This document shows positions 13,672-61,973 of a stretch of 64,000 bases of DNA, piece after piece. The position numbers and the translations under genes were made by a program. How positions within the stretch are numbered: the stretch's first letter is position 1; each line of letters starts with the position of its first letter. The notes below the pieces were generated by a model. The model was not told where the DNA came from. It did no database searches and was given only the letters and a program-made list of their open reading frames with translations. The DNA is from an uncultured virus (IMG/VR IMGVR_UViG_2823577039_000003) (taxonomy: Duplodnaviria; Heunggongvirae; Uroviricota; Caudoviricetes): the IMG/VR virus record IMGVR_UViG_2823577039_000003; one strand, 5' to 3'.

Positions 13672-14574
13672 TCACTGATCCCATTTGAATTGAGGGTTAA
13701 TCTTAAACTTATCCATAATCATTTCGGACGCAAGATTTCCAAAAATGGTTCCCAGTGCCCCGATTAGACATCCAATAATTATACCTTTTAACATGACGGA
13801 AGCATCATCGTCATCATAAAGATTGGCTACTTCAGGATGTTTCTGAAGATATTGGGTAACCGAAGAAGGAGGATTATCATTTTTCAAACGAGGGTCTCGG
13901 GCAGCCGCAGGGTCGTGAAACACTTTCCCCACAGGTGCGGTAAATCTCTCTGCCAAGAATTGGTCGTCCCATGATGATAATAAGTTGTCCATAATGTCAT
14001 CAATAGCATTATTTAACCGAGAATTATCTGTATCTGATAAAATATTTTCTCTTTCTTCTTCCGTCAAACTGTCATACCATTGGTCTGCGTCTTGTTGGGT
14101 GGAATCTTCGTCGCCAGTGAGGGCAATATATATATTTAACACATCATCGGAAAAACCACTTACCCAATCCTCAGACCAGCCTTCGTAAGCCTGCTCAGTA
14201 GCCATTTGTGGATCATAATAAGAATCGTCATACCAGTCATCTTCATCTTCGCTTTGATACATTAAAGGTTTAGTATAATGACCTCCACAGGAAGTGCCGG
14301 GGCCTTGAAAACGTCCTCCAAGGACTCTGCAATCGCCCATAGTGGTTTCCATACACCTGCCATCAGGTAGCAAACAAGCACCAAACCAATTAGAATAAGG
14401 TGTAGCCTTGAAATCTTTTTCTAAAAGTATGTCTACCTGACTATTGTTTAAAATATCCATAAGATAGGCAATAGACTCTTCTTCGTTGGAATCAGGGTGG
14501 GCTTCTAACCAAGCCACATACTCTTGAAGTTGACGGTCAGAAATTAAATCTAACAAGGTGGAAAGTTCAATCAT
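13672..14574 (-). CDS. Acidic protein with Cys module and near-C-terminal membrane anchor
   Basis: Has the module GACLLPDGRCMETTMGDCRVLGGRFQGPGTSC and a TM segment GIIIGCLIGALGTIFG. ATGA overlap. Confidence 0.6.
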   Translation of the reverse strand: MIELSTLLDLISDRQLQEYVAWLEAHPDSNEEESIAYLMDILNNSQVDILLEKDFKATPYSNWFGACLLPDGRCMETTMGDCRVLGGRFQGPGTSCGGHYTKPLMYQSEDEDDWYDDSYYDPQMATEQAYEGWSEDWVSGFSDDVLNIYIALTGDEDSTQQDADQWYDSLTEEERENILSDTDNSRLNNAIDDIMDNLLSSWDDQFLAERFTAPVGKVFHDPAAARDPRLKNDNPPSSVTQYLQKHPEVANLYDDDDASVMLKGIIIGCLIGALGTIFGNLASEMIMDKFKINPQFKWDQ

Positions 14575-14846
14575 CCTTGTGCCTCCTTGATCTCTTCTGT
14601 TAGACCGAGAGCAAGGATTACAAAGGGGATGCTCATTAAAGCATAATCAGTCCAACCGAAAGCATCAGATGGCCAACCATACTGACGATAGGTGCGAGCG
14701 ACACCCAAAAGGGTAGAAGTAAAGAAAGCAGCAGAACCGACGGCAGGAATTAAAAGACCACGCCATGCTTTACGTCGTTGCTCGGCTCGGGCATCAACTT
14801 CAGCCTCTACTTGGGTTTCAATATGTTTTTGCTCTTGGCCCACCAT
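14571..14846 (-). CDS. Small 2-TM membrane protein
   Basis: Two hydrophobic segments; SD GAGGTGA. Confidence 0.55.
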   Translation of the reverse strand: MVGQEQKHIETQVEAEVDARAEQRRKAWRGLLIPAVGSAAFFTSTLLGVARTYRQYGWPSDAFGWTDYALMSIPFVILALGLTEEIKEAQG

Positions 14847-14853
14847 AGGAAAC

Positions 14854-15408
14854 TCACCTCATAAGTAATGCGAGTCCTGCACCGAGAGCACCGGCTACAG
14901 CCAATGAACCCCATGCAACAGAGGTTTCAGGTTCTATTTGCATACCATCAATTTCTTGAGTTTCGTCAGCAGAATAACTTTCTGCTTCTCCGGCTACTAC
15001 GGAAGGGTCATCCGAAGTTCGGCATCCGAAAACATTAGACCACAAAGGATTACACAAACGGTTTTCAGTCATCCAGCGTGAAAAAGCACCGGGCATGGAT
15101 TCATCAAGATATTTATAATCTTGCATATCTGCACCGCTGGAAGGCATCCACTTCATAGTGGAACCAGTTTGGGTGTAGGGAATACCGGCTTGACCATAGG
15201 GTTGATAAGCATTACCAGATTGGTCTAAAGTAGTTACTGTAGGTGTCCATGCCATCCATGGAACTGTAGAAGGTGCTTTAGAGATAGGATCTCCACCAGC
15301 AGTNTATCCAATAATTTCTTGTTTCTTAGAAGGGTCTGAAGGATCTTGAACATAACACTTTCGGTTATATAAGTCTCCACGGTCACAGGTAATTCCATAG
15401 CCAGCCAT
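14854..15408 (-). CDS. Tail-anchored protein
   Basis: Ends WGSLAVAGALGAGLALLMR-stop. TATA motif at 15428-15438. Confidence 0.6.
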   Translation of the reverse strand: MAGYGITCDRGDLYNRKCYVQDPSDPSKKQEIIGXTAGGDPISKAPSTVPWMAWTPTVTTLDQSGNAYQPYGQAGIPYTQTGSTMKWMPSSGADMQDYKYLDESMPGAFSRWMTENRLCNPLWSNVFGCRTSDDPSVVAGEAESYSADETQEIDGMQIEPETSVAWGSLAVAGALGAGLALLMR

Positions 15409-15427
15409 AAATATAATAGTGTCAGCC

Positions 15428-15438
15428 GACTATTTATA
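15428..15438 (-). promoter_or_regulatory. TATA promoter TATAAATAGTC
   Basis: 19 nt spacer to ATG 15408; lies 1 nt after the upstream stop codon. Confidence 0.8.
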
Positions 15439-15439
15439 C

Positions 15440-17652: not shown

Positions 17653-19116
17653 TTATTCTTGGTTGTAGAAGGCACCTAAACCTACAAGGGCCAATGGAAT
17701 GGTAAGTGCAGCAGCAACCCAACCCAAACCTAATTTATATCCGGTGCGAAGTGGTTGTTGTAGTTGAATGGGAACAGTAGGGTCTGCAAGAACCCGACGG
17801 TTTTCAGCATCCATTTCAATAGTATCTTGAATGGCGATTTCATCTTGGAGTTCATCTAAACGAGTGGCAATCTGATTACGATAACGTATCATTTCTTCTA
17901 ACAAGGGGTGTTTAGGATTGTCCATAGTTTGATACATAGTAGCGATATCAGTTTCTAAAGACATATAGATAGATAATAGACGATCGAAATCTTGTTCATC
18001 ATCAATAATTATATCTTCTCGGATTTCTAAGAGAGTATTGAAGGGTGAATCTGCAGCAAAATGTTCGGCTTGCTTAAAGATTTTCTTAAAAGTGGTAATT
18101 TCTTTGTCACTGGCAGAGGGTTGATAAGTAATTTTACTTGACATATCACGACCGTCTCGGTGTCCATCGTTGTAAGCATAAATATAAGCATCAGATTCAG
18201 AGGCATAAGTGCCAGTTTCAGCGGTGTTAAAATCACTGTATTCGTGATGCCATGAGACATCTCCAGTAACCTCAAACTCTTNATCTTGGGCATCAACAAA
18301 TTGAATATCAAAACTTAGGCTTCCTTCGCCATCACCTGTGCTACGGATTTCTCGCTCTACTCGGTCTTCTATTTCTGCTATCTGGTCACCATCTAATGAT
18401 TTAGGTGATTCATACTGGCCTTCGTAAACAATAGTTCCAAAAGTCATACGCTCTCCGGAAATCTCACCAGATTCGGCTCGCTTACGCTTGAGACCTTCGC
18501 TTCCATCAAGAGGTGTCCAATTTGCCATCTCTCCAAACTCCATAGGATCTTGAATAGGGGCACTTCCTTCCTCAGAATAATGCTCACGCATGTAATCTAC
18601 ATCAGTAGAAGCCTCGTCCATAGCGGCCTCTTCTTTTTCTCTTTTCATTCGTTGGCGTTTAGTTTCCGCCTTCATAGCAGAAACACGATAATAACCTTCG
18701 CCTTCTGGCCCTCCTTCATCGTAAATCCATTTAGCAGCACAAGGTTCACAAATGTTGTCATGACCTTCTATATCTCCACCGGGATTAGGTAATCCAGTAA
18801 TATAACAGTTAGGACCTTCGGCATATTCAGTCCATTCTAAGAAATCAATGCCATCCAAATGGCTGTCTTGACAAGTTTCTTCTGCACCCATCTTGACTTC
18901 ATCAACTAAGTAATCGTCTTCAAAGGCTCCAATCTCACGCAGTTCAGCGATTTTGTCATCACGATCTAATTCAGAAAACTCTTCTTCAATAGTAATCATA
19001 AAATCTTCTAATTCATCGGGAGTATAAATATCCATTTTGTATCCCAGTTGTTCTAACTGATCGAAATCTAAAAGACGAAACATATCGTCTAATTGTTCAT
19101 CGCTGAAGTATTGCAT
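17653..19116 (-). CDS. Acidic modular tail-anchored protein with multiple xAE motifs
   Basis: Motifs MGAE, MKAE, KRAE, NTAE, YASE, KQAE and MDAE. C-terminal TM LGLGWVAAALTIPLALVGLGAFY. Confidence 0.6.
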   Translation of the reverse strand: MQYFSDEQLDDMFRLLDFDQLEQLGYKMDIYTPDELEDFMITIEEEFSELDRDDKIAELREIGAFEDDYLVDEVKMGAEETCQDSHLDGIDFLEWTEYAEGPNCYITGLPNPGGDIEGHDNICEPCAAKWIYDEGGPEGEGYYRVSAMKAETKRQRMKREKEEAAMDEASTDVDYMREHYSEEGSAPIQDPMEFGEMANWTPLDGSEGLKRKRAESGEISGERMTFGTIVYEGQYESPKSLDGDQIAEIEDRVEREIRSTGDGEGSLSFDIQFVDAQDXEFEVTGDVSWHHEYSDFNTAETGTYASESDAYIYAYNDGHRDGRDMSSKITYQPSASDKEITTFKKIFKQAEHFAADSPFNTLLEIREDIIIDDEQDFDRLLSIYMSLETDIATMYQTMDNPKHPLLEEMIRYRNQIATRLDELQDEIAIQDTIEMDAENRRVLADPTVPIQLQQPLRTGYKLGLGWVAAALTIPLALVGLGAFYNQE

Positions 19117-24096: not shown

Positions 24097-24729
24097 TTAA
24101 GCCTGTGCTTGAAGTAGGCTTCGCTTATACCAGTCTACGTTTCCGGGGTTGATACTGATTCCCATCTCCAACAACTTGTTAGCGATAAGTGCATCTGGAC
24201 CGTCGTAAAGTGTGTATTTAACGAAACACATTAGTTCACCAGCAACTGATGTTCCTGCTGCGAAAGCACCTGCGTTGTAGAAAGTTACCAAAACGTCCCA
24301 AACTTGACCCGGTAGGACGTAAACGTCTGGGTAAAGGTTGAAAGCAGGTTGGAAATCAATACTGCGTGGGTAAGGGCTTGCTGCACCGGGGATACCATCG
24401 TTAGGGATGTTATCTGGGTCAAGGAAATAATCGGTTGTGTTGATTCTTACTTGGACGTAGGAACGAGGACCTGCAATACCAGCGGTTCCTGCTGCTCCGT
24501 CTATGATCAATCCACGGATAACAGTGTCTGCTGTGATACCAGCCCAGCAACCCAAAGTGGGTGTGGTTGCGATATCTTCAATAACAACGAACTCTGTTGC
24601 AGTGGTTTCCGCAGGCTTTGTGATGTTGTTACCAACGCCACCGACGAAAATTGATGTTCTTTGACCGACAACTGTTGATACGGTCATTCCTGTGCTGTCC
24701 CATTCATATACTTGGCTTCTCATTGACAT
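24097..24729 (-). CDS. Candidate major capsid protein (family A)
   Basis: Strong SD AGGAG; codon usage appears rich in AAC/TTC/TAC. Beta-rich core with a helical C-terminus. Tandem paralogue upstream and two more paralogues at 7747-10661. Confidence 0.55.
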   Translation of the reverse strand: MSMRSQVYEWDSTGMTVSTVVGQRTSIFVGGVGNNITKPAETTATEFVVIEDIATTPTLGCWAGITADTVIRGLIIDGAAGTAGIAGPRSYVQVRINTTDYFLDPDNIPNDGIPGAASPYPRSIDFQPAFNLYPDVYVLPGQVWDVLVTFYNAGAFAAGTSVAGELMCFVKYTLYDGPDALIANKLLEMGISINPGNVDWYKRSLLQAQA

Positions 24730-24772
24730 ATTTTTTCAACTCCTATTAAAGTGTTTAAATCGGGGTCTCCGA

Positions 24773-25438
24773 TTAAGCCTGACCTCCAGCGGCTGCAGCG
24801 ACACGAGAGCGTTGCTGTTGTTCAATCAGGGAACGCTTATACCAGTCAACGTTGTTTGGGTTGATGGTGACACCAAGTTCCAAAAGTTTGTTAGCGATAA
24901 GAGCGTCTGGTCCGTCATATAGAGTGTATTTAACGAAGCAAGAAACAACTTCAGTGGATGTAGCATCTGTTGAAGTAGTTCCGACACTTGTAGTGTAAAG
25001 AATCTGGAAAGTCTGACCGGGTAGAACGTAAACGTCTGGGTAAAGGTCAAAAGACTTCAAGATGTTCTGTGAACCAACTGAGGACGCTGTAACTGAAGTT
25101 AGGTCCAGAGTGGAGTTTGCACCACGAGGGTATGGACTTGCCAGACCGGGGATACCATCCATGTTGGTAACGTCGGGGTTCTGGAAGTAATCTGTTGTGT
25201 TGATTCTGATTTGAACAGCACCAGAAAGAACTGGGCTTGCTGCAATATCTTCAATCACAATAAATTATGTGGCGGTTGTTTCTGCGGGCTTGGTGATGTT
25301 GTTTCCAATTCCACCTGTGAAAATATCGTATTCACGGTTAGCAGTTACTTGAACTGGCTGATCGGTGGAAAGACGGCGAAGTTGATTCGCACTTGTCTGA
25401 AGGTTACTCCATTCGTATACTTGGCTTCTCATTGACAT
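24773..25438 (-). CDS. Candidate major capsid protein (family A) interrupted by an in-frame TAA at 25265-25267
   Basis: ATG 25438 (MSMRSQVYEWSN) has SD GGAGGT and reads GGIGNNITKPAETTAT*FIVIEDIA. The paralogue reads GGVGNNITKPAETTATEFVVIEDIA, so the stop replaces Glu (GAA to TAA). Confidence 0.7.
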
Positions 25439-26560: not shown

Positions 26561-27115
26561 TTAGTAGCCCATAGCGGAATAAAGTTCCTTAGCCTTGGCC
26601 ATGTTGCCTTTTGCTTCAGCGACACAGGATCGCCATGCTTGTTGCTTAGGTGTGCCAGACTTTGAAGGTGCGGCTTCCATAGCATTAAGAACCATTTCTT
26701 CAGCAGCATATTCTTCATCAGAGATACCGCCTTCAGCAGCCATTGGAACTACTTCAGGAGTAGGTTGGGCTGCAGTTTGGATTTGGTCACGGAAATCACC
26801 AGCAACATCAGAAACTCTTTCTTCAACTACATCGTAAACATCGCTTACGACTGGTAGTTTAGTGAGTTCACCGAGAACTGGTGTTCGGCGGAACTTGCCC
26901 ATAAGAACAGCAAGTCCAAGAGTGGCAGGAACTACTCCAAGAATGCGGCCAACAGTGACGGATGCACCGCCAACTACTGGGATAGCAGATGGAATAGTTG
27001 TAACTTGGTAAGAAAGGATGTCAGCAAAACGAGTGCTAAAGAAACCAAAACCAACGAGCAGGAGAGACCCTCCGACAGTGTATTCATTAACAATTAGATT
27101 TCGCATACTTAACAT
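26561..27115 (-). CDS. Membrane protein family C (N-terminal hydrophobic hairpin)
   Basis: IVNxxTVGxSL..IPV..xGRIL.VVPxxLGL is shared with 27138..27497 and 40280..40582. SD AGGAG; MAAE and YAAE motifs. Confidence 0.6.
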   Translation of the reverse strand: MLSMRNLIVNEYTVGGSLLLVGFGFFSTRFADILSYQVTTIPSAIPVVGGASVTVGRILGVVPATLGLAVLMGKFRRTPVLGELTKLPVVSDVYDVVEERVSDVAGDFRDQIQTAAQPTPEVVPMAAEGGISDEEYAAEEMVLNAMEAAPSKSGTPKQQAWRSCVAEAKGNMAKAKELYSAMGY

Positions 27116-29477: not shown

Positions 29478-30371
29478 TTATTGCATACTACGCCTGACCA
29501 AGAGGATAGGTAGAACGATGGCAGAAACCGAGGCTACGCCGATTAAGGCCGGAGCCATATAAGATTTACGAGGGGCTTCAATTTCAATTTCCACGGTGTC
29601 AACTTGTGGAAACGCCGGGGCCATGACATCATGAGTTACGGCATCTAAATTAGGAAGTAGATCTACGACCTGTGAGGCTGGGGCTAAAGTTAATTGTTCT
29701 CGGGTTTCTACAACATCACATCCCGAGTAATTAGTTTGCGACCAAGTAGCGGCAGCGATTTGCACAACTTTAGGATAAATAATAGCATCGTAACCTAAAG
29801 TATCTTTATTATAGCCAGCAGAAGTTAAGTTATTGATAACACGAGCCAAGGTAACTTGACCTTCGTGATAACCGGGAGTGCCCATGGCTGGGAACAACCA
29901 GAGTTCGTATTCGGCAGGAAGCATAGAAGCGACTCGTTGAGCCACACCGAATTGGTCACGGGCTTCGGCTCGCATTTCCTCGGTAATAACAGGAGCGATG
30001 GGTTCAGCCATCATTTCTGGCTCGGGAGTTTCTTGATTCTCAAAATCAATACCCGAGTCCTCCACCACCGGCTGGTCTCCAGCCGTTTCAGGAGTAGTGG
30101 CATCTGAATCATCTACGACATCATCTAAAGCGACTTCTTCTTCAGGTGAATCATCATCATCGTCAGAAATACCTTCAGTTTTCGCAGCGACACCTGCTAA
30201 AGCGGCACCTGCCTTTTCCATAGCAGCACCTTTGGAATCTTTGGTTTCTTTATCGCCGGGGATTGCATCAGTTGTAGGAACAGAGTCCTTAACTTCTTCG
30301 TCTACACCTGCAGACTTTTCAATCTCGGCCTTTAAGTCTTCCAAATCCGGAGACAAATCTTCATCAGCCAT
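29478..30371 (-). CDS. Acidic tail-anchored protein
   Basis: Disordered acidic N-terminal half and C-terminal TM ALIGVASVSAIVLPILLV-RRSMQ. TATA motif at 30391-30401. Confidence 0.6.
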   Translation of the reverse strand: MADEDLSPDLEDLKAEIEKSAGVDEEVKDSVPTTDAIPGDKETKDSKGAAMEKAGAALAGVAAKTEGISDDDDDSPEEEVALDDVVDDSDATTPETAGDQPVVEDSGIDFENQETPEPEMMAEPIAPVITEEMRAEARDQFGVAQRVASMLPAEYELWLFPAMGTPGYHEGQVTLARVINNLTSAGYNKDTLGYDAIIYPKVVQIAAATWSQTNYSGCDVVETREQLTLAPASQVVDLLPNLDAVTHDVMAPAFPQVDTVEIEIEAPRKSYMAPALIGVASVSAIVLPILLVRRSMQ

Positions 30372-31558: not shown

Positions 31559-33547
31559 TCACTTCTTGGAGGCTAACATGTATCCGAGGTAAGCCAAAAT
31601 ACCGCCGCCAGCAACCATAGCCATAGGGCTTTGGAACATACTTGGCTTTTGGTAACGAGCACCCATACCGTCAATAGTCTCGGAGAGAAGCAACATGAAC
31701 TCATCTCCAGTCATGTATTCTCCTTCGGGACTCATTTCATCCACGAACTCGTAAGGATGATATGCATCAGGACGTGCTTCTTGCACGGCTACGGATTCAG
31801 GAGCCTCTGCGCTACCATACCATTGAGGTGCGCCACGACCGCCAATAGCGGAATCGTTACCCCATGAGTTGTTAACCAAAGGAACTCCTTGGACGTGAGT
31901 AGTTTCTACATTGTCGGAGTAGACAACTTCGTTGACTTCTGCACCATACATTTGTGGAACTCCGTTTCCAGAGCCACCGGCAGAATCTTCTCCCCATGAG
32001 TTAGCAATAACTGGTAGACCGACACCAAGAGCATCTTCTCCACCAACTTGTTCAAATACTAAGGGGTTGACTTCAGCATCCATAGTCATAACATCGTCAT
32101 ACTTACGGTGCATACGAGTGTGCATCTTATCCATAGCAGCCGCTTCATCTCGGCGGTCATGCTTGGATTGAGAATGAGGACCACGGTGTCGCATTCCAAG
32201 TGATTCATCCATCTTATCATTATAGCCTTGTTCAGCACCATACCATTGTGGAACTCCACGTCCGCCAATAGCGGAATCTTCGCCACGAGTATTAGGAACA
32301 ATAGGAACTCCTTGAACATGAGTTTCATCTACATTGTCAGACATAACTACTTCGTTAACTTCAGCACTACCATACCATTGTGGAACACCTTGTCCACTAA
32401 CAATTGCGGAGTTAGTTCCATAAGCATTAGCAGGAGCAAGAATATCAACGCCCGCATCAGGCATCATAACGAAGTTTTCGTCAGAGCCGGGTTGCTCAAT
32501 TCCATCTGCAGAGTAGTGAATCATATGATCGTAATCGCCACCGGCTTGTCCAAAGGCTTGAGTAGTCATAACTTGACGCATTTCTTCTCCCATTGGAACA
32601 ACTTCAGTCAGTGGTGTGGCCTCAACTTCAGCATCAAACTTCATAGCCTTAGCAGCACGAGCAGCCTTACGAGCCTTGCTTCGTGCCTTAGCACTTAGAC
32701 GGTGTTTAAGAGTTGCCGACTTGGGACCCATTTTATCAGTCTTCATAGGATTGACGTGTCCGACCTCGCCTTCAGCAGCGTTATCAAAAGTATCTTGAGG
32801 AGTGTATCCTCCTTCTACACCAGAAGGATCGTATTTAACGTTAGCCGTGCTGTAGGTTTCAGCCGGTGGGTTATCTGCCATTGGGTCAGAAACTTGAAGT
32901 GCTTCTGATTCAGGGGCTGCTTCTGCTTCTGCAGAGAATCCTTCATTCTGTGGGTTTTCGGTTAGTGGACGAGATTCATCGTAAGAAGATGGAGTTGGTG
33001 CGACCGATGTTGGGTCTACGAACTCTGCTGACTTCTGATTGATAACATCGCCAATTTCGCTTTCTAATTTGTTTATAGTTTCCAAGATATCCTTCTCCTC
33101 GTAAATAAATGTGTTAATCAAGAATGTGCCGGGGGTTGTGTTTGCGCCAACGGCTTCCAACTGTGACATATCGGTAGCACTCGGGTCGGCTTCCCTCATA
33201 GTAATGGTATCAGTTCCATCAGTAACAACATAGGGTGGGCTTTGGCCGCCTTCGTCGTAAGTTCGCATTTCAACCATACCTTGTCGGTTAGGTCCACGAA
33301 CCTTAACGGTGGTGCCTTCGTCACGAATAGCAAGTGGGGTGTAACCATGGTTGTCCACACGGGACTTATGGTAGAAAAGAGCACATCGGTAGAGTTGGTT
33401 ACGAACCTCTTCCGGCAATCCATCATACTGGTTCTTCTTCAAAATCCAGACGTTATCATAAAAGTTTAAAGTATCATTTTTTGATGATGCATCAAAGCCC
33501 CAGTAGTCTTGGGATAGAATATATACACGCTCTCGGGATTCTGCCAT
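31559..33547 (-). CDS. Large tail-anchored protein with GxGVPQWYG(S)AE repeats
   Basis: Four copies of DSAxxGxGxPQ[WM]YG(S)AE. C-terminal TM MAMVAGGGILAYLGYMLA-SKK. TATA motif at 33567-33577. Confidence 0.65.
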   Translation of the reverse strand: MAESRERVYILSQDYWGFDASSKNDTLNFYDNVWILKKNQYDGLPEEVRNQLYRCALFYHKSRVDNHGYTPLAIRDEGTTVKVRGPNRQGMVEMRTYDEGGQSPPYVVTDGTDTITMREADPSATDMSQLEAVGANTTPGTFLINTFIYEEKDILETINKLESEIGDVINQKSAEFVDPTSVAPTPSSYDESRPLTENPQNEGFSAEAEAAPESEALQVSDPMADNPPAETYSTANVKYDPSGVEGGYTPQDTFDNAAEGEVGHVNPMKTDKMGPKSATLKHRLSAKARSKARKAARAAKAMKFDAEVEATPLTEVVPMGEEMRQVMTTQAFGQAGGDYDHMIHYSADGIEQPGSDENFVMMPDAGVDILAPANAYGTNSAIVSGQGVPQWYGSAEVNEVVMSDNVDETHVQGVPIVPNTRGEDSAIGGRGVPQWYGAEQGYNDKMDESLGMRHRGPHSQSKHDRRDEAAAMDKMHTRMHRKYDDVMTMDAEVNPLVFEQVGGEDALGVGLPVIANSWGEDSAGGSGNGVPQMYGAEVNEVVYSDNVETTHVQGVPLVNNSWGNDSAIGGRGAPQWYGSAEAPESVAVQEARPDAYHPYEFVDEMSPEGEYMTGDEFMLLLSETIDGMGARYQKPSMFQSPMAMVAGGGILAYLGYMLASKK
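31806..32460 (-). repeat. Intragenic imperfect repeats (~40 aa unit ending PQWYG(S)AE)
   Basis: Also visible in DNA: + strand ccataccattg near 31815, 32238 and 32370, and ccgccaatagcggaatc twice. Confidence 0.75.
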
Positions 33548-35916: not shown

Positions 35917-36954
35917 TTACCTCCACAAATAATCAGCAAATCTTTCAAAGCCATTAAAGGGTTGATAACCTTGTTGCACTCCACCATATTGTAATTCCAT
36001 AAGTTTATAATCTTCTAAACGATTGTCACCCACAGGATGTTTCTTAACTTGATTACCTAAATAATCTCGCAATACATTTCGGTTGAAAAACATTTCATAA
36101 TCTAATTCATTCGGGATAAGTTGGGTAGGATAACCATAATTCATGGCATCATAACCAAGGTCTTTATGATTCAAGGCTACGAATCCTGCATTGAACTCTT
36201 CGGCTTCTAATCTTTCACCAGCATCTTCACGGACTTTTCTCCATGCTAAGTCGTGACGAATAAATATAAGTTCATTAAGATCTTCCGTGGTCTGCAGTTC
36301 TTTTCCGCTAACAGGTTCAATCCAAATAACGTCGGCAGTAGTGGGGCGAACACGATAAATATGAGCAGTGGTTAAATGTCCTGCATTTTTGCCGGGGCGT
36401 GAAACCGATACTACGTCACCGGGTTCCCAATCACGACTCAACTGTTCATAGTTGCCAATTTTCTTGTGAGCAAATTGTTTAGCAATATTTATTTCTGCTT
36501 GTGGTTTAGTATACTCAGATTCGGGAGCAATTCTTTCTCGCAACAAGGCTAAATTGATGTCACGAGCCTGACGTTCTTCACGAGCCTTATAATAAGCGTT
36601 AAGAATAATAGGATCAGATATTCCTCGTTGGGGTCGGTCGTCAATTAAACCAGATAAATCAGGTCCATTACGGGTAGAAAAGGGAACACCGCCTTCAGCA
36701 TAGAACTCTAAATAAGGTTCGTAAGCAGGATGAATATCTTCTTCGTGAATAATGGGAGGTTCACGGATTCGGAGATAATCGGTAACATCATCAAAGCGAC
36801 GAATTAAAATTAAATCATCGTAGTTTTCATAGGATTGCTTCTGGTCTTCCCAGATAACTCTAACTCGGTCAAAGTCTACATCTACAATAGTGCCAATAGA
36901 ACCATAACCTTCAATAGCAATTGAAGTAATTTTATCTCCTAAGTTCCACTTCAT
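35917..36954 (-). CDS. Protein with two SH3/KOW-like repeats
   Basis: WNLGDKI..GTIVDVDFDRVRVIW..DDLILI and WEPGDVV..AHIYRVRPTTADVIW..NELIFI. ATGA overlap start at 36954. Confidence 0.55.
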   Translation of the reverse strand: MKWNLGDKITSIAIEGYGSIGTIVDVDFDRVRVIWEDQKQSYENYDDLILIRRFDDVTDYLRIREPPIIHEEDIHPAYEPYLEFYAEGGVPFSTRNGPDLSGLIDDRPQRGISDPIILNAYYKAREERQARDINLALLRERIAPESEYTKPQAEINIAKQFAHKKIGNYEQLSRDWEPGDVVSVSRPGKNAGHLTTAHIYRVRPTTADVIWIEPVSGKELQTTEDLNELIFIRHDLAWRKVREDAGERLEAEEFNAGFVALNHKDLGYDAMNYGYPTQLIPNELDYEMFFNRNVLRDYLGNQVKKHPVGDNRLEDYKLMELQYGGVQQGYQPFNGFERFADYLWR

Positions 36955-40279: not shown

Positions 40280-40582
40280 TCAAAGGTGACCGTGGGCTTT
40301 TGCGCCTTCAATCATCTCAGCAGACATATCTACGAATTGAGTAGGGTTTAGAACGATACTCTTACCGAAGAGCATAACCAATCCGCTACCAACTGCGATA
40401 GTTCCGAGAACCTTAAGTGGAGTTACTCCACCAAAGAGGGGAAGTTCACCAAAGGACATGCTACCAAAAGCATCTTTGTTAAAGAAAGGTAGTGGACCAG
40501 AGAACTGGTGTAGACCGATCAAAGTTAGTGTTGTTCCAATTACGAGTTTGTTGCTTAAGAAATCTGTGACTGCATTCATCAT
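40280..40582 (-). CDS. Membrane protein family C
   Basis: FLSNKLVIGTTLTLIG..LPLFGGVTPLKVLG..GLVML resembles 26561 and 27138. Has an MSAE motif. Confidence 0.55.
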   Translation of the reverse strand: MMNAVTDFLSNKLVIGTTLTLIGLHQFSGPLPFFNKDAFGSMSFGELPLFGGVTPLKVLGTIAVGSGLVMLFGKSIVLNPTQFVDMSAEMIEGAKAHGHL

Positions 40583-41518: not shown

Positions 41519-41932
41519 TTACTTGTTCATGAGAGAGGAAACAGCCAAGAATGCGCCAGTTCCAACTAATGCAAATCCTAAGAGATTCATGAGGGAATTG
41601 CCAGAGGATTCACCTTCAGCACTGTAGTGTTCAGCAACCATGCGGTCTTGTTCGCCTTGGTCTTGTCCAAAGTTTTGGCCGTCAGCATCTCCGCCTTGGT
41701 CTCCAGTTTGACCTTCATCGGCACCTTCTGGAGTATCAGTTTCAGGTTTCAAATCTACTACTTCTGATTCTTGAGTAGCGTCTTGAGGAGATACCATTTG
41801 AGTCATGGGGTCAGTCATAACATCACGGTTAGTGTTCATGAAAGCACGAATAGCATCAGAGTTACGTTCCCAAGAGTAGTGATTTACTACGGTATTAGGA
41901 TCTACAATCATCGGTTCGTTGAAAGGGTGCAT
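41519..41932 (-). CDS. Tail-anchored protein
   Basis: MVAEHYSAE is followed by TM LMNLLGFALVGTGAFLAVSSLM-NK. Confidence 0.6.
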   Translation of the reverse strand: MHPFNEPMIVDPNTVVNHYSWERNSDAIRAFMNTNRDVMTDPMTQMVSPQDATQESEVVDLKPETDTPEGADEGQTGDQGGDADGQNFGQDQGEQDRMVAEHYSAEGESSGNSLMNLLGFALVGTGAFLAVSSLMNK

Positions 41933-43165: not shown

Positions 43166-44359
43166 TTAGTTGGAGGCTAAACCACGATAAACGACATAAC
43201 TAAGAGTTCCAGCCACTACTAAACCACCTACTACGATGCCGGTGACCATCATACTACCATCTTTTTCGGGTTCTGGTGGTTCTACCTCAACATCATATTC
43301 TACTTCAGGTTCGGCTTTCGCCTCAGCATCCCAACTCATATTATTTACTAATCGTGCCGGTGGCAGATTACCTACTGGGGAGGGGGTTGCAGGGGGAGGG
43401 GTTCTCCAAGAGGCTTCTGCAGCCATCGGTTGCTTGTGGTTGGGATTGACATCTACTTCTACATCTAAGGCTGCCAAGTCTTGAGGCGAGGCTACAGGAT
43501 TTTCATCATGGAACTTCAACCGTGAATCTTGAATGTTAACGTTGTGTCCTTTGTGTTCGGTCTTACGGTCTCCACGGATTTTACCGATGACTACATATCC
43601 TCGGTCACGATAGAACTCGGGTGCATAAGCGATAACTTCTCCTTTACGGGCTTTAGCGATACCGTCCAGCATACGCTTAATAGTTTTCTTATCAGTTCCA
43701 AAGGATAACTGATCGTCCAGAGCCTTGAGGTCACGAGCGTTGATAACGTTGTGAACGAGATAGATAGAGGCTTGAGATAGGGCTTCCTTGCCTACGCCCG
43801 CAGGACGCTGGGAGATAAGTGTAACTCCATAACCGAGAGCACGGCCTAATTTACAAAGACGAATAATGGGGTCGGCTGAACTTGGTCTTCCCATCTGTGG
43901 AATAAAGTCTTGACATTCTTCCACGATTGTTTGAATACCTTTACCAAGTGCGGCTTCTAAAAGGGCTTCACAATATTCAGCAATCAATTCTTGTTGCTTC
44001 TTGAGTGGCAGTCCCGCCAACTTAATAATAACTGAGTTAGAAGTAGTCTTGAGAGTATCCACTAATTCTTTCATGTTGATAGTCTGTCCCAGAGTAGGTT
44101 TGAGTGGCACGACACCGGGCATCTGTTCTGCTAAATGACCGTGAGCATCCAGAGCGTCAAAACAAACGAATTGTAATCCCAAGCGAGCAAACTCTTCCAT
44201 CAGAACCGCAGCGGTCCATGACTTTCCGCTACCACGCTTACCAGTAATAAACAGAACCTGTGAGATAAGTGAATCATCTCCATAGGCAGAGAAATGAATA
44301 TCTTTGCCTAACAGGACACGATCCTTGGGGTCCTGTAATTTCTCTTGAGGTTTACCCAT
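43166..44359 (-). CDS. HerA/FtsK-superfamily P-loop ATPase with C-terminal membrane anchor (candidate genome-packaging ATPase)
   Basis: Walker A GKRGSGKS, Walker B TIVEECQ, and LGRALGYGVTLISQRP (Arg and SQRP motifs). C-terminal TM GIVVGGLVVAGTLSYVVY. Start MGKPQE. Confidence 0.85.
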   Translation of the reverse strand: MGKPQEKLQDPKDRVLLGKDIHFSAYGDDSLISQVLFITGKRGSGKSWTAAVLMEEFARLGLQFVCFDALDAHGHLAEQMPGVVPLKPTLGQTINMKELVDTLKTTSNSVIIKLAGLPLKKQQELIAEYCEALLEAALGKGIQTIVEECQDFIPQMGRPSSADPIIRLCKLGRALGYGVTLISQRPAGVGKEALSQASIYLVHNVINARDLKALDDQLSFGTDKKTIKRMLDGIAKARKGEVIAYAPEFYRDRGYVVIGKIRGDRKTEHKGHNVNIQDSRLKFHDENPVASPQDLAALDVEVDVNPNHKQPMAAEASWRTPPPATPSPVGNLPPARLVNNMSWDAEAKAEPEVEYDVEVEPPEPEKDGSMMVTGIVVGGLVVAGTLSYVVYRGLASN

Positions 44360-44378
44360 AGATATAACTTCCCTGCAC

Positions 44379-44389
44379 AACTATATGTA
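44379..44389 (-). promoter_or_regulatory. Variant promoter TACATATAGTT
   Basis: 19 nt spacer to ATG 44359 (HerA ATPase). Confidence 0.65.
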
Positions 44390-48177: not shown

Positions 48178-49404
48178 TCACTCCTTGTAGGCTACATGGT
48201 TAGGGTAGGAAATATCAGCAATCCACTGACGAGCAGCATCTATGCCTTTCAGATTTCCATAGCCGTTGGTAGCAGCATTACCAGCGAACTCTTGTGTTAA
48301 CAACATACGATACATAAAATTGTGGTCACGGGCTGGATGTCCAGCAGGAACATTAGTAGAAGGTTGATAAGCACCTACAAACTGATTAGTTATAACTAAT
48401 CCACAGTCTGGGCAGAGACTATCAAAATATTGCACGGGATAAAGTTGACCTTTTATTTTATAATAACGTGGTGGGTCAGGATCGGTGGTGTTAGTTTTTC
48501 CACCATAGTGAATTACTTCTTCTACAACATAATCGCCGGGGTTGAGTGTTCCTAACTTAGTTCCAGTTCCACCCATAGGAGAAGTGGTAGAATTAGGGAA
48601 ACAATAGATTTCCATAGTGCTGTTATCTTGATAAGCAGTAATAGTTTTACTTAATCTAACTTTAGCCCACTTGTTAGCATCTAATCCAGAAGCCAGTGCA
48701 AAACCAATTGGTGGATAGAATTGAGTGCCTAAACCATGACCTTGCACGGTTTGATAAAGGGGTGTGGCAGTAGTGGGTTTTCCAGTAGCGGGGTCCAGAC
48801 CTTCTAATTCACCGGGTTTGCCACCGGGAGGTGACCAACGATTATCAACTAATTTACCACGGACACGCAAATCATTATGGCGAGTTAAGTGTTCATCACG
48901 GTTTTCACCAACTCCACATTGACGAGTTAAAACTTCCCACATTCGGCCTTCAGCCATGGCTTTACGATACAAGGCTTCTAAGTTTTTATCGGGCACACGC
49001 TTCCAGTTTAAACTGCGAGTAACATTGAAGTTAACTACAATATCAGAAAGAACGTTAGACCACATACCTTGTTGGCTGGGAGCACAAGGATAAGATTTTA
49101 CTTCTTTTTGCCAGTCACATCCTCTGCCGGGGTGTGTGGTCAGATGTCCAATCTCGTGTCCAATAACGAAAGTAGTGCCAGCAATCCGAGCGATATGATT
49201 AGCAGGATAACCATGATAATTGGCAGCAATACATTTTTGCATAAAACTATCGCTGAACTCTACATTTTTAGAATCGGTTTTAGCACCTTTAAAAGAATTG
49301 CCTAAGAAACATTTGACAGATCCGGGAATACCTGTAGCCTGTTTTAGAAAGGCCCAAGCATCGGCAAACTCATCGTTAGCCTGTTGAACAGCGTTGTCTG
49401 CCAT
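48178..49404 (-). CDS. HExxH zincin-like metallopeptidase (DUF2201_N-like, MoxR/vWA-associated)
   Basis: VIGHEIGHL is followed by WSNVLSDIVVN, the W-N-x-x-x-D-x-x-x-N type helix of this family. Lies between the MoxR and vWA genes. Confidence 0.65.
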   Translation of the reverse strand: MADNAVQQANDEFADAWAFLKQATGIPGSVKCFLGNSFKGAKTDSKNVEFSDSFMQKCIAANYHGYPANHIARIAGTTFVIGHEIGHLTTHPGRGCDWQKEVKSYPCAPSQQGMWSNVLSDIVVNFNVTRSLNWKRVPDKNLEALYRKAMAEGRMWEVLTRQCGVGENRDEHLTRHNDLRVRGKLVDNRWSPPGGKPGELEGLDPATGKPTTATPLYQTVQGHGLGTQFYPPIGFALASGLDANKWAKVRLSKTITAYQDNSTMEIYCFPNSTTSPMGGTGTKLGTLNPGDYVVEEVIHYGGKTNTTDPDPPRYYKIKGQLYPVQYFDSLCPDCGLVITNQFVGAYQPSTNVPAGHPARDHNFMYRMLLTQEFAGNAATNGYGNLKGIDAARQWIADISYPNHVAYKE

Positions 49405-56192: not shown

Positions 56193-56203
56193 AACTATTT
56201 ATA
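56193..56203 (-). promoter_or_regulatory. TATA promoter TATAAATAGTT
   Basis: 19 nt spacer to ATG 56173. Confidence 0.8.
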
Positions 56204-59745: not shown

Positions 59746-60141
59746 TCACTCCTCTTCTTCTAACTCAGGTTCAGGAAGTCCTAAAGAGATTCTAACCATG
59801 TCTGCTTTTTCAGCATCGTAGGCTAATTTAGCATCAGCCAGTTCCATACCTTCGGCTACTTTATCCTTGATGTAGGATTTTCGGTTGGACTCAAACTCCA
59901 TGAGGGCGAGAATAGCAGCATTTTCATCATCTACTTGACGACCATCATCATCGGATTCAAACAAATCTTCTACTTCTTGTTCAGCAGTCAAATAATCAGT
60001 GGCATCAACGTTGACATATTCGTCAAGTTCATCGTCCATAACTTTACCAGTTACGCCTTCTTGCATTTTTTCTACCATTTCCAAAGCCTGTGGCTTAGTT
60101 ACTCTAAATCCGACTCTTTCCCAGTATCGTGTCTCGGTCAT
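59746..60141 (-). CDS. Acidic hypothetical protein
   Basis: TATA motif at 60162-60172. Confidence 0.55.
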   Translation of the reverse strand: MTETRYWERVGFRVTKPQALEMVEKMQEGVTGKVMDDELDEYVNVDATDYLTAEQEVEDLFESDDDGRQVDDENAAILALMEFESNRKSYIKDKVAEGMELADAKLAYDAEKADMVRISLGLPEPELEEEE

Positions 60142-60334
60142 GGTAAACCATGTGGTAAACTACCTATTTATATCTTTTCTTAATTCGGAGTGACAGAAAT
60201 AATTTTACGATTGGATTTAATAGCAGAAATCAATTGGTCAGGATCGGTCACAGGGTCGCCTTCTACGAATTATAAATAACCTAAATCCAGTTGGTATTGG
60301 AATAAATGACGCAAAGCATTTTCTTCGCTACGAT

Positions 60335-60757
60335 TCATTTTTTACGCCTCTTTGACTTTTTCCGGGGTTTGGCACCAAGAGTCATGTTAACAGGAGAATC
60401 AGGGTTATCTAAATCTTGAGTCAGACAGCGATGCCCGCAATAGGAACGAGTAGTAACGACTTTGTGCCAACGAGCAGATTTAGTTTTATGCCATCCCAAA
60501 GTAATCATGTGTCCCTGATCGAACTTGTTATCACAGCAACTGCATTGAGCACCATCTTCGGTAGCCACTTCTCCAGTGTCGTCTAACCACTGGCCGTCAT
60601 CGTCTTGTAGCAACATCCGAAGGCATTCAATAGAACATAAAACATCGGAATTAAGATGTTCAGACCACCTACCGTTAGCATTAAACAAAGTATCGGTAAA
60701 AATAACTACAGGTTTATTAGTTTTAATCACGGTATCACACATCACGCATTGGCTCAT
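60335..60757 (-). CDS. Tandem TRASH/MYM-like zinc-finger protein with basic tail
   Basis: CVMC..CSIECL and CSCC..CGHRCL, ending KPRKKSKRRKK. Confidence 0.65.
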   Translation of the reverse strand: MSQCVMCDTVIKTNKPVVIFTDTLFNANGRWSEHLNSDVLCSIECLRMLLQDDDGQWLDDTGEVATEDGAQCSCCDNKFDQGHMITLGWHKTKSARWHKVVTTRSYCGHRCLTQDLDNPDSPVNMTLGAKPRKKSKRRKK

Positions 60758-60876
60758 TCTACCAACTCCTTAAGTTCTTGTTTCATGCCACTAATAATAA
60801 ACGGAAAGTGGTAATCGTTGAGAATCTTTTTAATACCTTCACGCATTCGCTGGACTTCATCACATTCGCAACTCAT
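60754..60876 (-). CDS. 40 aa small protein missing from the ORF track
   Basis: Translates as MSCECDEVQRMREGIKKILNDYHFPFIISGMKQELKELVE*. SD GAGGTGAT, with ATGA overlaps at both ends. Confidence 0.6.
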   Translation of the reverse strand: MSCECDEVQRMREGIKKILNDYHFPFIISGMKQELKELVE

Positions 60877-61244
60877 TCAATCACCTCGTATAACTGCCAT
60901 TCTCCAGAAGCGAGACCATCTTTATGAGAGAATAATCTACCGACTGGAAATCCATGGGCTTGACGCTCGTTATCGGCTCTCAATCTGCCTCCACATTCTA
61001 ATTCAAAAGGTGGGTCGTGAAAACGAGATCGCCATGCAAAAGAATCAACGGAATCAACGGCTATGGGACGAAGATGATAGGAATCATCTAATTCGCCCAC
61101 AAGGACGTGAAGCCCTTGGCCGCTGGATGATACCCGATACCAGACCCTTTCGGGTCCAAAAGACTCGGCCAACTGGCTCAAAGCCTGCTGGACGATATCA
61201 TTATCTATGGCGACATCATCCCAATCAAAAGTTAACACTCCCAT
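60873..61244 (-). CDS. Minimal archaeo-eukaryotic primase (AEP)-like protein
   Basis: hhhDWD (motif I) and RVSSSGQGLHV (motif II) occur in only about 123 aa. Confidence 0.55.
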   Translation of the reverse strand: MGVLTFDWDDVAIDNDIVQQALSQLAESFGPERVWYRVSSSGQGLHVLVGELDDSYHLRPIAVDSVDSFAWRSRFHDPPFELECGGRLRADNERQAHGFPVGRLFSHKDGLASGEWQLYEVIE

Positions 61245-61283
61245 AGGAGTAATTAGTAACAACCTCTGTTATATAGTTTGAGA

Positions 61284-61973
61284 TTACTTCTTAAGCATCT
61301 TGGAAGCAAAAATACCGCCAACAACTACGAGAGCAGCAATACCACCGTAAAGTAGGTAATTGGTTTCGTCTTCTTCAGTGTCATCGCCGTTTCCGCCATT
61401 ATCAGAACCACCGTTGCCACCATTAGAACCGCCGTTGTCGCCGTTTGTGCCGTTATCACCAGTTCCGTTGTCGCCACCCGCAGGTGTGATAGGAACTACT
61501 TCATCAAGAGTGATATTGTAGGAGTCTCCACGAATCCATGGAACTTCAGTAGTTACGTTTGCAGAACCATCTGCAGGGACATAAACTACGTTTTTTCCAC
61601 GGCCATCACGGTAGAGTGAGTCGCCGGGCTTAAGGTCAAAGGAAAAGGTTTGTTTGCCGGGGCGTGATAGGTTAACAGTTTGACTAACTATATCAGCAGC
61701 ACTGTCAAGTGTAAAGTGGAATCCTTTATCGTATCCTGTTTTAACTCCACCACTTACGTTAGTAGTGTGAGAGCCAGCACCAGTGCCACCATCACCGATA
61801 CTAAAACGACTAAAGTTGGCACCGTCATAGTTAGTAATGTTAGCACTATCAATGGTTGCTGCACCGAATTGTTTTGATGGTAGCGACATCAAACTTTCTG
61901 CGCTGAATGTTGGTAGTGGGAGATTAGTCTCGGATTGAAACTTTCCAAATGAGTTATAGTCTACAAAGCCCAT
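61284..61973 (-). CDS. Tail-anchored surface protein with Gly/Asn/Asp linker
   Basis: FSAE near the N-terminus, a beta-rich domain, a GDNGTG/GGNGG linker, and TM YLLYGGIAALVVVGGIFA-SKMLKK. Confidence 0.65.
   Translation of the reverse strand: MGFVDYNSFGKFQSETNLPLPTFSAESLMSLPSKQFGAATIDSANITNYDGANFSRFSIGDGGTGAGSHTTNVSGGVKTGYDKGFHFTLDSAADIVSQTVNLSRPGKQTFSFDLKPGDSLYRDGRGKNVVYVPADGSANVTTEVPWIRGDSYNITLDEVVPITPAGGDNGTGDNGTNGDNGGSNGGNGGSDNGGNGDDTEEDETNYLLYGGIAALVVVGGIFASKMLKK

Follow-up and report, generated by a model that had tools for sequence, protein, structure and literature searches.

The 64,000 nt stretch of DNA analysed here (hereafter the window, whose numbering is used unless another sequence is named) corresponds to bases 62001–126000 of G000:C16 (C16), a contig of 136 kb and 41.6 % GC found in a metagenome-assembled genome (MAG). 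The long open reading frames (ORFs) of the window are all on the minus strand, and 69 non-overlapping ORFs, each named by W and its first coordinate (W27551 starts at 27551), span 97 % of it. They include an FtsK/HerA-type packaging ATPase, candidates for the capsid protein, a Get3/ArsA-type ATPase, an HExxH protein and a series of otherwise unrelated proteins that carry the short motif with which this study is concerned, Phi-x-A-E, where Phi is a bulky M, Y, F or W and sometimes L (Table 1). The motif is a real, specific and lineage-wide protein-level signal that is common to unrelated proteins of the morphogenesis module.

Table 1. Features of the window discussed in the text (aa, amino acids; TM, transmembrane segment; numbers after motifs are residue numbers; G001 and G002 are related virus genomes)
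Feature	Coordinates	Strand	Motif sites and remarks
W7747, 653 aa	7747-9708	-	
W17653, 487 aa, C-terminal TM anchor	17653..19116	-	MGAE76, MKAE148, MDAE435 (17803-17814, 26 residues before TM)
W19120, 760 aa	19120..21402	-	YHAE181, FSAE198, LSAE299, FAAE304, MCAE311, YKAE501 (19891-19902), WGAE660
Classical AAA ATPase	21439-22842	-	Pfam
Capsid-protein candidates (210 aa; 161 aa or more)	24097..25258	-	most conserved small proteins, 59-79 % identity to relatives; no motif
W26561, 184 aa, one TM	26561..27115	-	MAAE125, YAAE136; MAAE125 aligns to LEAE, VEAE in G001, G002
W27551, 348 aa	27551..28597	-	N-terminal helical membrane part and long low-confidence tail
W27551 motifs (strict motifs and YGSAE)	YSAE116 28241-28252; FGAE200 27989-28000; YAAE271 27776-27787; YGSAE322 27620-27634	-	
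W29478, 297 aa, tail-anchored	29478..30371	-	MMAE120, MRAE133; MRAE133 aligns to FVAE, LLAE in orthologues
W31559, 662 aa, cassette-built	31559..33547	-	FSAE204, FDAE304, YGSAE392, YGAE436, MDAE489, YGAE534, YGSAE577
W31559 motifs	YGAE436 32231-32242; MDAE489 32072-32083; YGAE534 31937-31948	-	
W33584, 303 aa	33584..34495	-	MAAE112 aligns to YGAE in G001; LAAE138 to MAAE or MSAE in several subgroups
W35917, 367 aa	35917..37020	-	FYAE106 (36694-36705)
W36951, 138 aa, tail-anchored	36951..37367	-	WRAE86 aligns to WRAE, HHAE or WASE in subgroups, lost in others
W37416, 309 aa	37416..38345	-	MGAE75 aligns to YGAE in G001, retained in 7/7 close homologues; YAAE162 unconserved
W38402, 101 aa, N-terminal TM	38402..38707	-	MAAE37 aligns to KSAE, MSAE or LKAE after TM, family-wide
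Cu/Zn superoxide dismutase	39269-39883	-	
W40280, 100 aa membrane protein	40280..40582	-	MSAE86; counterpart LSAE or MMAE in the majority of homologues
W40624, 294 aa	40624..41508	-	MKAE163 aligns to MKSE (G002), MKAE (G001); FGAE268 unconserved
W41519, 137 aa, tail-anchored	41519..41932	-	MVAE98, YSAE103
FtsK/HerA-type packaging ATPase, 404 aa, C-terminal TM anchor	43166..44380	-	MAAE319, WDAE350 in variable linker
Five-gene block including a 741-aa protein, directly upstream of packaging ATPase	44406-56194	-	in G001, G002, most metagenomic loci
VWA/CoxE-like protein (VWA_CoxE/VWA_2)	44406-45413	-	Pfam
923-aa protein	45410-48181	-	
W48178, 408 aa, HExxH protein	48178..49404	-	sole protease candidate; no motif of its own
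1509-aa protein with MoxR-type AAA lid (AAA_lid_2)	49440-53969	-	Pfam
W58349, 268 aa	58349..59155	-	FAAE79 (58910-58921); FDAE252 unconserved
Get3/ArsA ATPase	62172..63197	-	single YYAE40; orthologues HHAQ, HYSN, YHAS
C-terminally anchored ORFs (those included)	13672-14574, 14854-15408, 15440-16645, 17653-19116, 29478-30371, 30984-31562, 36951-37367, 41519-41932, 43166-44380 (packaging ATPase), 61284-61973	-	

The window contains 64 matches to [FYWML].AE, compared to 19.5±4.1 expected from shuffles of each protein, and none of 500 shuffles reached the observed count. For the strict motif, [FYWM].AE, there are 51 matches in the 69 ORFs against 11.8±3.4 (1000 shuffles, maximum 23), with 47 of them within 13672–61973, where 9.9 are expected, and 4 elsewhere in the window, where 1.8 are expected. 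A first-pass annotation of the window had claimed that the motif recurs in many otherwise unrelated proteins, and this was confirmed both by the composition-matched shuffles, none of which reaches the count, and by its distribution: 28 of the 69 proteins have at least one strict motif (10.3±2.8 expected), and the flanks are unrelated, no pair among the 51 motif contexts agreeing at 9 or more of 24 flanking positions. Each of the 31 short peptides (four or five residues) given there as examples was found in the ORF named, and the coordinates were confirmed by spot translations. Relative positions of the motifs along the proteins range from 0.04 to 0.94, and most are internal or C-proximal.

The bulky set had been given as [FYWML]. 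This holds for F, Y and W ([FYW].AE, 35 versus 8.8 in shuffles) and for M (16 versus 3.4), but L.AE is raised only weakly (13 versus 7.2). The variants ending in AD and SE, which had been grouped with the motif, did not prove to be window-wide signals, as [FYWML].AD is at expectation (23 versus 20.1) and [FYWML].SE is barely raised (21 versus 15.9), neither enrichment being significant. Other patterns with the same bulky set were also at expectation, namely.EA (20 versus 18.8),.AQ (9 versus 12.3),.AK (12 versus 12.7),.GE (19 versus 19.7) and.VE (15 versus 15.6), as was [IV].AE (8 versus 11.3). When 48,000 gapped tripeptide patterns were scanned without bias, Y.AE came first (18 versus 3.7), M.AE second (16 versus 3.2) and F.AE seventh, and no pattern of the A.E type was in the top 30.

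When residues were shuffled within blocks of 10, 20 or 40, about 12–13 strict motifs were still all that was expected (maximum 24) and, hence, local composition is not the cause of the excess, a conclusion that the permuted-motif controls also support. The codons used for A, E, F and Y inside the motif follow background usage, and the +1 and +2 frames of the same coding sequences contain 5 and 0 matches compared to 51 in frame. Selection therefore acts on the protein and not on the DNA, and a DNA-level word or an effect of overlapping frames was ruled out. Inflation of the count by paralogous repeats was ruled out by the lack of similar flanks among the 51 contexts. An artefact of chance or composition, whether from the helix-favouring A-E pair, acidic low-complexity sequence or a DNA word, is thus effectively refuted and must be considered extremely improbable; the AE dipeptide alone is somewhat over-represented (148 versus 99.6), but none of 500, 1000 or 400 shuffles, block shuffles included, reaches the motif count, and permuted and neighbouring patterns are flat.

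Though single-protein searches of IMG/VR with the packaging ATPase and with W31559 gave no match, relatives were found by alignment-based searching. Homologues of the ATPase in marine metagenomes number 368 at E ≤ 1e-3 (among 8000 candidates) and lie on contigs of up to 170 kb, and the metagenome collection includes 425 relatives of the virus. Three IMG/VR relatives, G001 (160 kb), G002 (166 kb) and G003 (123 kb), were taken whole. Their gene order is collinear with C16, their ATPases are 53–58 % identical, and inverted terminal repeats are present in G001 and G002.

The excess recurs in this lineage. Within ±10 kb of the ATPase, the loci of these three relatives have 16 motifs versus 3.9 expected (L006), 10 versus 3.7 (L007) and 18 versus 4.4 (L008), and L125, the most distant relative examined (ATPase 49 % identical), has 12 versus 3.9. 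Pooling of 80 metagenomic loci, many of them close kin and so representing replication across one clade and not 80 independent tests, gave 721 motifs versus 211, and 305 versus 211 for the control [FYWM].EA. The mild rise of this control is a second point that could be made for an artefact, against which stands the replication in diverged relatives with positional conservation. In each complete genome the excess is limited to the morphogenesis block (10 kb bins), and none of five distant ATPase-bearing loci (ATPases 23–27 % identical, 60–65 % GC) is enriched. C16 alone of the MAG's 61 contigs shows strong enrichment (65 versus 23.4, z 7.6), and z does not exceed 3.2 in the other 60. A weak excess was seen in C26, C56 and C14 (z 3.1, 3.2 and 2.4; ~38–41 % GC), which have no BLAST similarity to the window proteins; C26, with 97 % of its genes on one strand, may be another virus.

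In G003, and partly in G002, the motif is extended on its other side to A-E-x-F-E-A, and G003 contains 47 AE.F versus 8 expected and 54 E.F.A versus 8. In G003 L040/L041 (G003:56428–67869), four paralogues have, at their called start or close to it, the sequence M-C-N-[TH]-C-G-C-[KR]-[GD]-A-E-x-F-E-[AS], a Cys-rich nonapeptide directly preceding the motif in all four. This N-terminal element may be a leader that binds metal or is lipidated. W19120 of C16 (residues ~311–330) and G002 have a related Cys-rich element in an internal position, following two AE sites.

Conservation in homologues, a second expectation of the first-pass annotation, was found at many sites, which are positionally conserved, while others have turned over or are unconserved. 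The conserved sites are kept in orthologues at 28–52 % identity while the bulky residue varies among M, Y, F and L, and substitutions of A by S and of E by D do occur at these sites in relatives. The fast family alignments are rough around tandem sites, and five families were re-aligned accurately. The six AE sites of the W27551 family are conserved in an alignment (A3) of 27 sequences down to 34 % identity, with interchange of FGAE, FGAD and FGSE and of YAAE, YSAE and YGAE between orthologues; in W31559 orthologues, YGAE interchanges with YDSE and MDAE with MDSE. FYAE106 of W35917 is retained as [FYWML]-x-[AS]-[ED] in 20 of 22 non-redundant homologues, and FAAE79 of W58349 is FAAE in G001 and G002 and FSAE in G003. 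A sample alignment of the W41519 family has M-x-(x)-A-E-G about 8–10 residues before the C-terminal TM in 16 of 18 sequences, and the W33584 family has a conserved F-G-A-D behind an N-terminal hydrophobic segment.

At other sites retention is partial. One subgroup of the W40280 family has AAES in place of MSAE86 and another lacks the tail, MKAE163 of W40624 is [MVI]KPE in most metagenomic homologues and, in the packaging ATPase (alignment A1), W350 is invariant but x-[AS]-E is retained in closer relatives only. The motif had been described as essentially absent from the fibres, the AAA ATPase, Get3 and the ~210-aa capsid candidates, which is correct except that Get3 has one copy, YYAE40, which is unconserved and probably there by chance. 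YDAE108 of W59746, FDAE252 of W58349 and the sites in the 923-aa and 1509-aa proteins are likewise unconserved and probably due to chance. Roughly 20–30 sites in the window would then be functional, a figure that is an estimate and not a count. There are 51 single-base N characters in the window, of which about 25 are in the gene at 19120–21402 (clusters 19153–19288 and 20368–21133). This is what masking of polymorphic positions would give, and would mean that strain-level variation is concentrated in the motif-rich W19120.

Many of the motifs mark the end of a conserved block. A module of ~35 residues, G-[LV]-P-[VI]-[VI]-P-[ND]-S-[YW]-G-x-[DEN]-S-A-...-S-G-x-G-V-P-[QV]-W-Y-G-(S)-A-E, is present in 15 copies in C16, G001 and G002, including four in W31559 that end ...GVPQWYG(S)AE. 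When the copies were aligned (A4), conservation vanished right after the A-E in 15 of 15, and in most copies a second Phi-x-A-E (or -AD or -SE variant) was present 5–16 residues upstream. In A3, mean conservation in the eight columns before and after the six AE sites was 0.81/0.29, 0.69/0.52, 0.69/0.44, 0.69/0.44, 0.51/0.47 and 0.50/0.76, respectively, and it thus falls after AE at four to five of the six, with 27 gappy columns behind FGAE. When window proteins were compared to those of relatives using BLAST, 20 internal ends of high-scoring segment pairs (HSPs), which are not mutually independent, fell on the motif versus 6.2±3.1 expected (1 of 1000 permutations).

Conserved small cassettes with the motif on both sides move between proteins and genomes. 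A basic unit of ~50 aa in W31559 lies between YGAE436 and MDAE489; the matches to it in relatives cover exactly residues 439–492/493 with 76–81 % identity, and in G001 the unit is tandem, with MDSE or MDAE between the copies. The basic cassette of W19120 (SNFNKLAHKI...KYGKRGMTRK...RKSAE) begins directly behind YKAE501; cassettes of this type follow YKAE in C16, LMAE in G001 and LSAE in G003, and end with RKSAE or RKAAE. These two strongly basic ~50-residue cassettes, at 32072–32242 (QGYNDKMDESLGMRHRG...) and 19720–19902 (...KYGKRGMTRK...), belong to the best conserved parts of the module, with 76–85 % identity in orthologues that are otherwise 30–45 % identical, and are candidates for DNA-condensing or core peptides. 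The motif therefore tends to bound conserved cassettes, which is how a code of processing sites would be expected to look.

One motif protein, W27551, was modelled using AlphaFold2 and the family alignment. Residues 24–112 form a helical membrane part with a predicted local distance difference test (pLDDT) score of 67–85, and residues 113–348, which include every AE site, have a pLDDT below 50. This tail is probably disordered and outside the confidently folded core, and for this protein the earlier expectation that the motifs occupy disordered sequence rather than folded cores is borne out. The polar fraction of the flanks, a weak proxy for disorder, is 0.694 versus 0.668 in C16 (p 0.008) and without significance in three relatives. 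In the W27551 family, a G-S-G-S-V-I-G-Q found behind the first AE site appears again, as A-E-G-x-G-S-V-x-G-Q, at the very C-terminus; the outline G-x-G-x-x-h-G is one that we take to resemble the SHP-box motifs that bind Cdc48/p97 N-domains.

A processing site is favoured by the position of the motif at block ends and on the flanks of cassettes and by a setting that is probably disordered. Our preferred reading, put forward tentatively, is that Phi-x-A-E (A sometimes being S) is a site of proteolytic processing used in building the virion; here we infer the cleavage, its position and the enzyme alike. A single common factor, most likely a protease, would read the short linear signal during virion morphogenesis. 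The proteins of the morphogenesis module would be made as precursors consisting of conserved blocks, each ending in the motif and followed by a variable spacer, and the blocks would be freed from one another by a cut at the Glu or beside it, falling either after the E, as in T4 and phiKZ, or between A and E to leave an N-terminal Glu, as in SSV1 VP1. Small basic units, the ~35-aa GVPQWYG(S)AE module and the ectodomains of single-pass membrane proteins would be among the blocks.

The only candidate for a virus-encoded enzyme is the DUF2201_N-like HExxH protein W48178, which is a plausible but putative reader of the motif, though not a universal one. In an alignment (A2) of 12 sequences at 25–48 % identity, H83, E84, H87, P92, S120 and D121 are invariant and H91 is nearly so. 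In the model (pLDDT 87), the N-terminal ~165 residues look zincin-like, an SH3-like beta domain comes next, and the C-terminal part is helical. VIA gave matches with middling values to selecase (Z 6.3 over 101 residues, root-mean-square deviation 3.2), ZMPSTE24 (6.3), abylysin (5.9), ERAP1 (5.7) and BepA (5.6). The nearest named ESM-Atlas clusters are PF13203 DUF2201_N 'putative metallopeptidase' (26/30, score 0.90), on the basis of 165 shared features, fewer than the 170 that true members typically show. The neighbours of W48178, one VWA/CoxE-like and the other a large AAA+ protein that has a MoxR-type lid, fit this assignment. W48178 resembles DUF2201_N in its HExxH and in these neighbours, and tentatively in its zincin-like model, but differs in having no Pfam match to PF13203 and in the additional SH3-like and C-terminal helical parts. 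An exhaustive HMMER search found only 27 relatives of W48178, none with an informative Pfam domain. Homologues are present in G001, G002, L125, L127 and 57 of the 80 metagenomic loci, and each of the 23 loci without one extends for <5.5 kb in the direction in which the gene would lie.

Among zinc HExxH enzymes, the BMP1/tolloid astacins, Asp-N-type enzymes and meprin beta cleave in front of acidic residues, and BMP1 substrates have a small residue at P1 and an aromatic residue or Met two to three residues upstream. By analogy, a zincin that reads Phi-x-A|E could be considered plausible. The fuller proposal, that the virion interior derives from cassette polyproteins cut at Phi-x-A|E by a virus DUF2201_N-type zinc peptidase acting with the VWA protein and the large AAA+ protein (MoxR-type lid), is doubtful. 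A title-level look at the literature gave no sign of a functional study of DUF2201.

A number of observations weigh against processing. Cleavage is a prediction made from sequence, and the stretch of ~30 conserved residues upstream of W-Y-G-S-A-E is longer than a protease would require and has the look of an epitope for binding. HSP starts fall on the motif 11 times versus 5.7 (78 of 1000 permutations), which is not significant, and 14 sites in other families gave a mixed picture, with conservation higher upstream at eight (>0.05) and higher downstream at four. AE is found at natural C-termini 17 times versus 8.6, but these cases come mostly from one family and from ORFs cut at locus ends and are not independent. 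The zincin assignment of W48178 is itself weak. It and two orthologues have no Pfam match, PF13203 included, even at E ≤ 10, and 15 homologues have none at E ≤ 0.01; the family has no PDB sequence match, and the top Foldseek rows are zinc peptidases but weak, with none at E ≤ 0.001. The HExxH, VWA, large AAA+ and 923-aa genes were not found in the 123 kb of G003 by tblastn and a six-frame hidden Markov model search, and the whole five-gene block is missing at the syntenic place, between the W56218 orthologue and the ATPase. G003 nevertheless has the motif in its strongest, extended form; barring an incomplete G003 record or a different enzyme in that virus, the zincin is therefore excluded as a universal reader. 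The earlier proposal of the HExxH protein as the protease is thus supported by its conservation beside the packaging ATPase and, tentatively, by its zincin-like model, and weakened by its absence from G003.

No other enzyme came to light when the rest of the genome was searched, as there is no Pfam peptidase in the 159 C16 ORFs (E ≤ 0.01 for the 69 in the window and E ≤ 1e-4 for the other 90), nor in 146 of the 153 G003 ORFs, and lenient Pfam searching (E ≤ 1) of 28 core proteins also gave no peptidase. Pfam matches to the prohead proteases of the T4 gp21 or phiKZ gp175 family were absent from the C16 ORFs, a very remote homologue being conceivable, and matches to a Ulp1/adenain-like protease were absent from C16 and from the same 146 G003 ORFs. 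A host enzyme is equally possible as the reader. Among 42 core proteins considered, W59229 was rejected as a protease on the basis of an alignment that looks winged-helix, the W6767 orthologue was set aside after an ESM lead (0.77, a lead only) pointed to the central barrel of P23-77 VP17, and the sets of invariant His, Ser and Asp in others were not diagnostic.

A different role for the motif, which is possible though on balance unlikely, is as an uncleaved docking or sorting signal that binds a repeated site on an assembly partner, recruiting the proteins, several of which are membrane proteins, into the particle or tethering them within it; in some proteins the signal would comprise the longer module that ends G-V-P-Q-W-Y-G-S-A-E. 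The inner face of the capsid, a scaffold and the N-domain of the AAA ATPase are putative partners, and each is a candidate only. Docking would suit an identical signal in dozens of unrelated proteins of the morphogenesis block, the low-confidence and probably disordered tail of W27551, sites that turn over in evolution as short linear motifs do and the extended upstream epitope conserved in 15 module copies. The G003 extension AE-x-F-E-A looks like co-evolution with a binding pocket, and G003 keeps the motif without the HExxH block. However, docking does not explain why conservation ends exactly at the Glu, or why small units are flanked by the motif on both sides and occur in tandem.

The relationship to the membrane bears on both roles. 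In C16, a TM segment is present in 16 of 36 motif proteins compared to 44 of 160 proteins overall, which can be counted in favour of docking, and many motif proteins have a single TM segment, often C-terminal. Of 17 candidates for tail-anchored proteins in C16, nine have the motif, and in several small families a site lies 8–30 residues from the TM anchor. However, motifs are no closer to TM segments than chance predicts (13 versus 13.2 within 15 residues, 26 versus 22.4 within 30 and 32 versus 30.5 within 45), which counts against docking and lends no support to membrane-proximal placement as a general rule. The first-pass annotation had pictured membrane-tethered precursors that are cut to release their cargo, and the count of 26 versus 22.4 gives this picture no statistical backing; release from the membrane is possible for single proteins but is not a general rule. 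The virus-encoded Get3/ArsA-type ATPase is conserved in all three relatives (41–45 % identity) and, with the unusual number of tail-anchored proteins (Table 1), suggests virus-directed insertion into a virion membrane.

The two roles might also be combined, with the block and its motif docking the precursor to the core or membrane before clipping at A-E, in the manner of a T4 capsid targeting sequence. This would unite the extended upstream epitope with the cassette boundaries, and part of PMC5694885 describes the T4 sequences as N-terminal propeptides removed by the prohead protease. Nevertheless, docking followed by cutting seems rather unlikely, as both steps are putative and most sites here are internal or C-proximal and not in N-terminal leaders. 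It is improbable that the motif is a site of non-proteolytic modification, for instance one where the Glu is ligated or covalently cross-linked, or that it is a structural repeat without a trans-acting reader. The Glu is invariant, the residue in front of it is small and the one two positions upstream is bulky, which would suit a modification, and the genomes encode many unannotated proteins, but no such enzyme was found, the 51 contexts share nothing beyond the motif, whereas those of a structural repeat would, and the position at block ends is left unexplained by either.

Codes for processing or targeting that extend over the whole virion are known from T4-/phiKZ-like phages and from adenovirus- and poxvirus-like viruses, and to our knowledge none is known for prokaryotic viruses that package using FtsK/HerA-type ATPases. 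In T4, phiKZ and SPN3US, prohead proteases (T4 gp21, the gp175 type of phiKZ and 201phi2-1, and SPN3US gp245, which reads A-X-E) cut many head proteins after Glu at short motifs and at extra sites inside propeptides, as set out in part of PMC5694885. The likeness to the virus examined here lies in a short, degenerate motif that ends in Glu and is shared by many unrelated virion proteins and in several sites per precursor, from which small fragments are presumably cleared or kept as internal peptides (PMC5694885, in part). However, the phage motifs have a small or aliphatic residue at P3 (L/I-x-E, S/A/G-x-E and A-x-E), whereas here Ala adjoins the Glu and M, Y, F or W is two residues further upstream. 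There is also no T4-type prohead protease detectable by Pfam, and the ATPase is a membrane-anchored FtsK/HerA-type enzyme and not a terminase. Cleavage here is putative.

In adenovirus, which is icosahedral but not of the HK97 type, the viral protease processes many precursors of core and cement proteins at sites with a hydrophobic residue, any residue and then Gly-containing positions; adenain is a Ulp1-like cysteine protease that cuts sites of the Gly-Gly type. The outline, hydrophobic, any, small and then the cleavage position, is the same, but here the last position is Glu and there is no Ulp1-like Pfam match. The motif thus functions like the maturation codes of the T4/phiKZ and adenovirus types, if the reading as a processing site is correct, yet belongs to neither, as its grammar and the packaging machinery differ and no homologue of their proteases came to light.

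An archaeal precedent is VP1 of SSV1, a structural protein that, according to part of PMC5748691, is processed to an N-terminal Glu (the conserved Glu66) by an unknown protease, with essential conserved residues just upstream and no recognizable viral protease. In SSV1 there is one site in one protein of a spindle-shaped virus, whereas here there are dozens of sites and proteins in a large virus with an FtsK/HerA-type ATPase. The T4 capsid targeting sequence and the cargo-loading peptides of encapsulins are also alike in that a short common peptide directs diverse cargo to a shell, and in T4 the peptide is then removed at a Glu site, but these signals are terminal and present once per protein, while those found here are mostly internal and often multiple.

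If processing by a DUF2201_N-type enzyme were correct, this would be a maturation-protease system unrelated to the prohead proteases of the HK97 lineage and to the adenain family, and would provide the first function and substrate code for DUF2201_N. The products released would include multi-copy peptides of ~35–50 residues, some strongly basic, that could condense DNA or cement the capsid to the membrane. The motif also provides a sequence-only handle on an abundant uncultured group, predicts which of its ORFan proteins are components of the virion or of morphogenesis, where mature termini lie and which small peptides are within the particle, and gives a concrete substrate hypothesis for an uncharacterized zincin family. 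Marine metaproteomes, or a recombinant enzyme acting on synthetic peptides, would put these predictions directly to the test. Such a code appears to be new for this virus group, as neither the lineage nor such a motif was found described in the literature searched, mainly at the level of abstracts and including part of PMC11706807.

C16 looks like a virus contig that was mis-binned, because its GC content differs from the ~27 % of most other contigs in the MAG, BLAST of the window proteins against every other MAG contig gave no match, and the packaging ATPase is present in none of 20 relatives of the MAG. Relatives in the genome collection sit in MAGs labelled Acidiferrobacteraceae, Legionellales and Rickettsiales, labels that evidently reflect mis-binning and give no host. 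Most C16 proteins have no assignable family. Pfam identified TFIIB, the PolD large subunit DP2, a PolX-LigD fusion, an ATP-dependent ligase and Fpg among the information genes, and an MCM-like protein is also among the archaeal-type genes. The ATPases are of the FtsK/HerA type (PF01935), the Get3/ArsA type and the classical AAA type, and GT2, Cu/Zn superoxide dismutase, a SAP domain, the VWA protein and the 1509-aa protein with the MoxR-type AAA lid were also found. The C16 ORFs include no Pfam match to a portal, terminase or HK97 capsid protein; PHROG 2666, which is labelled terminase, matches the HerA-type region of the packaging ATPase. The lineage, widespread and apparently undescribed, consists of large (about 120–170 kb) linear marine viruses in which replication and transcription genes of archaeal type are combined with a packaging ATPase of the FtsK/HerA type.

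A PDB sequence search with the capsid candidate gave no meaningful match. W7747 and a 193-aa protein (C16:130265–130846) match the G003 orthologue of the 210-aa capsid candidate at 27–32 % identity and are putative paralogues of the presumed capsid protein. The Cu/Zn superoxide dismutase has an N-terminal extension and is 75 % identical to the copy in G003, and its best match in G002 lies within a 923-aa protein that also has an HExxH near its C-terminus.

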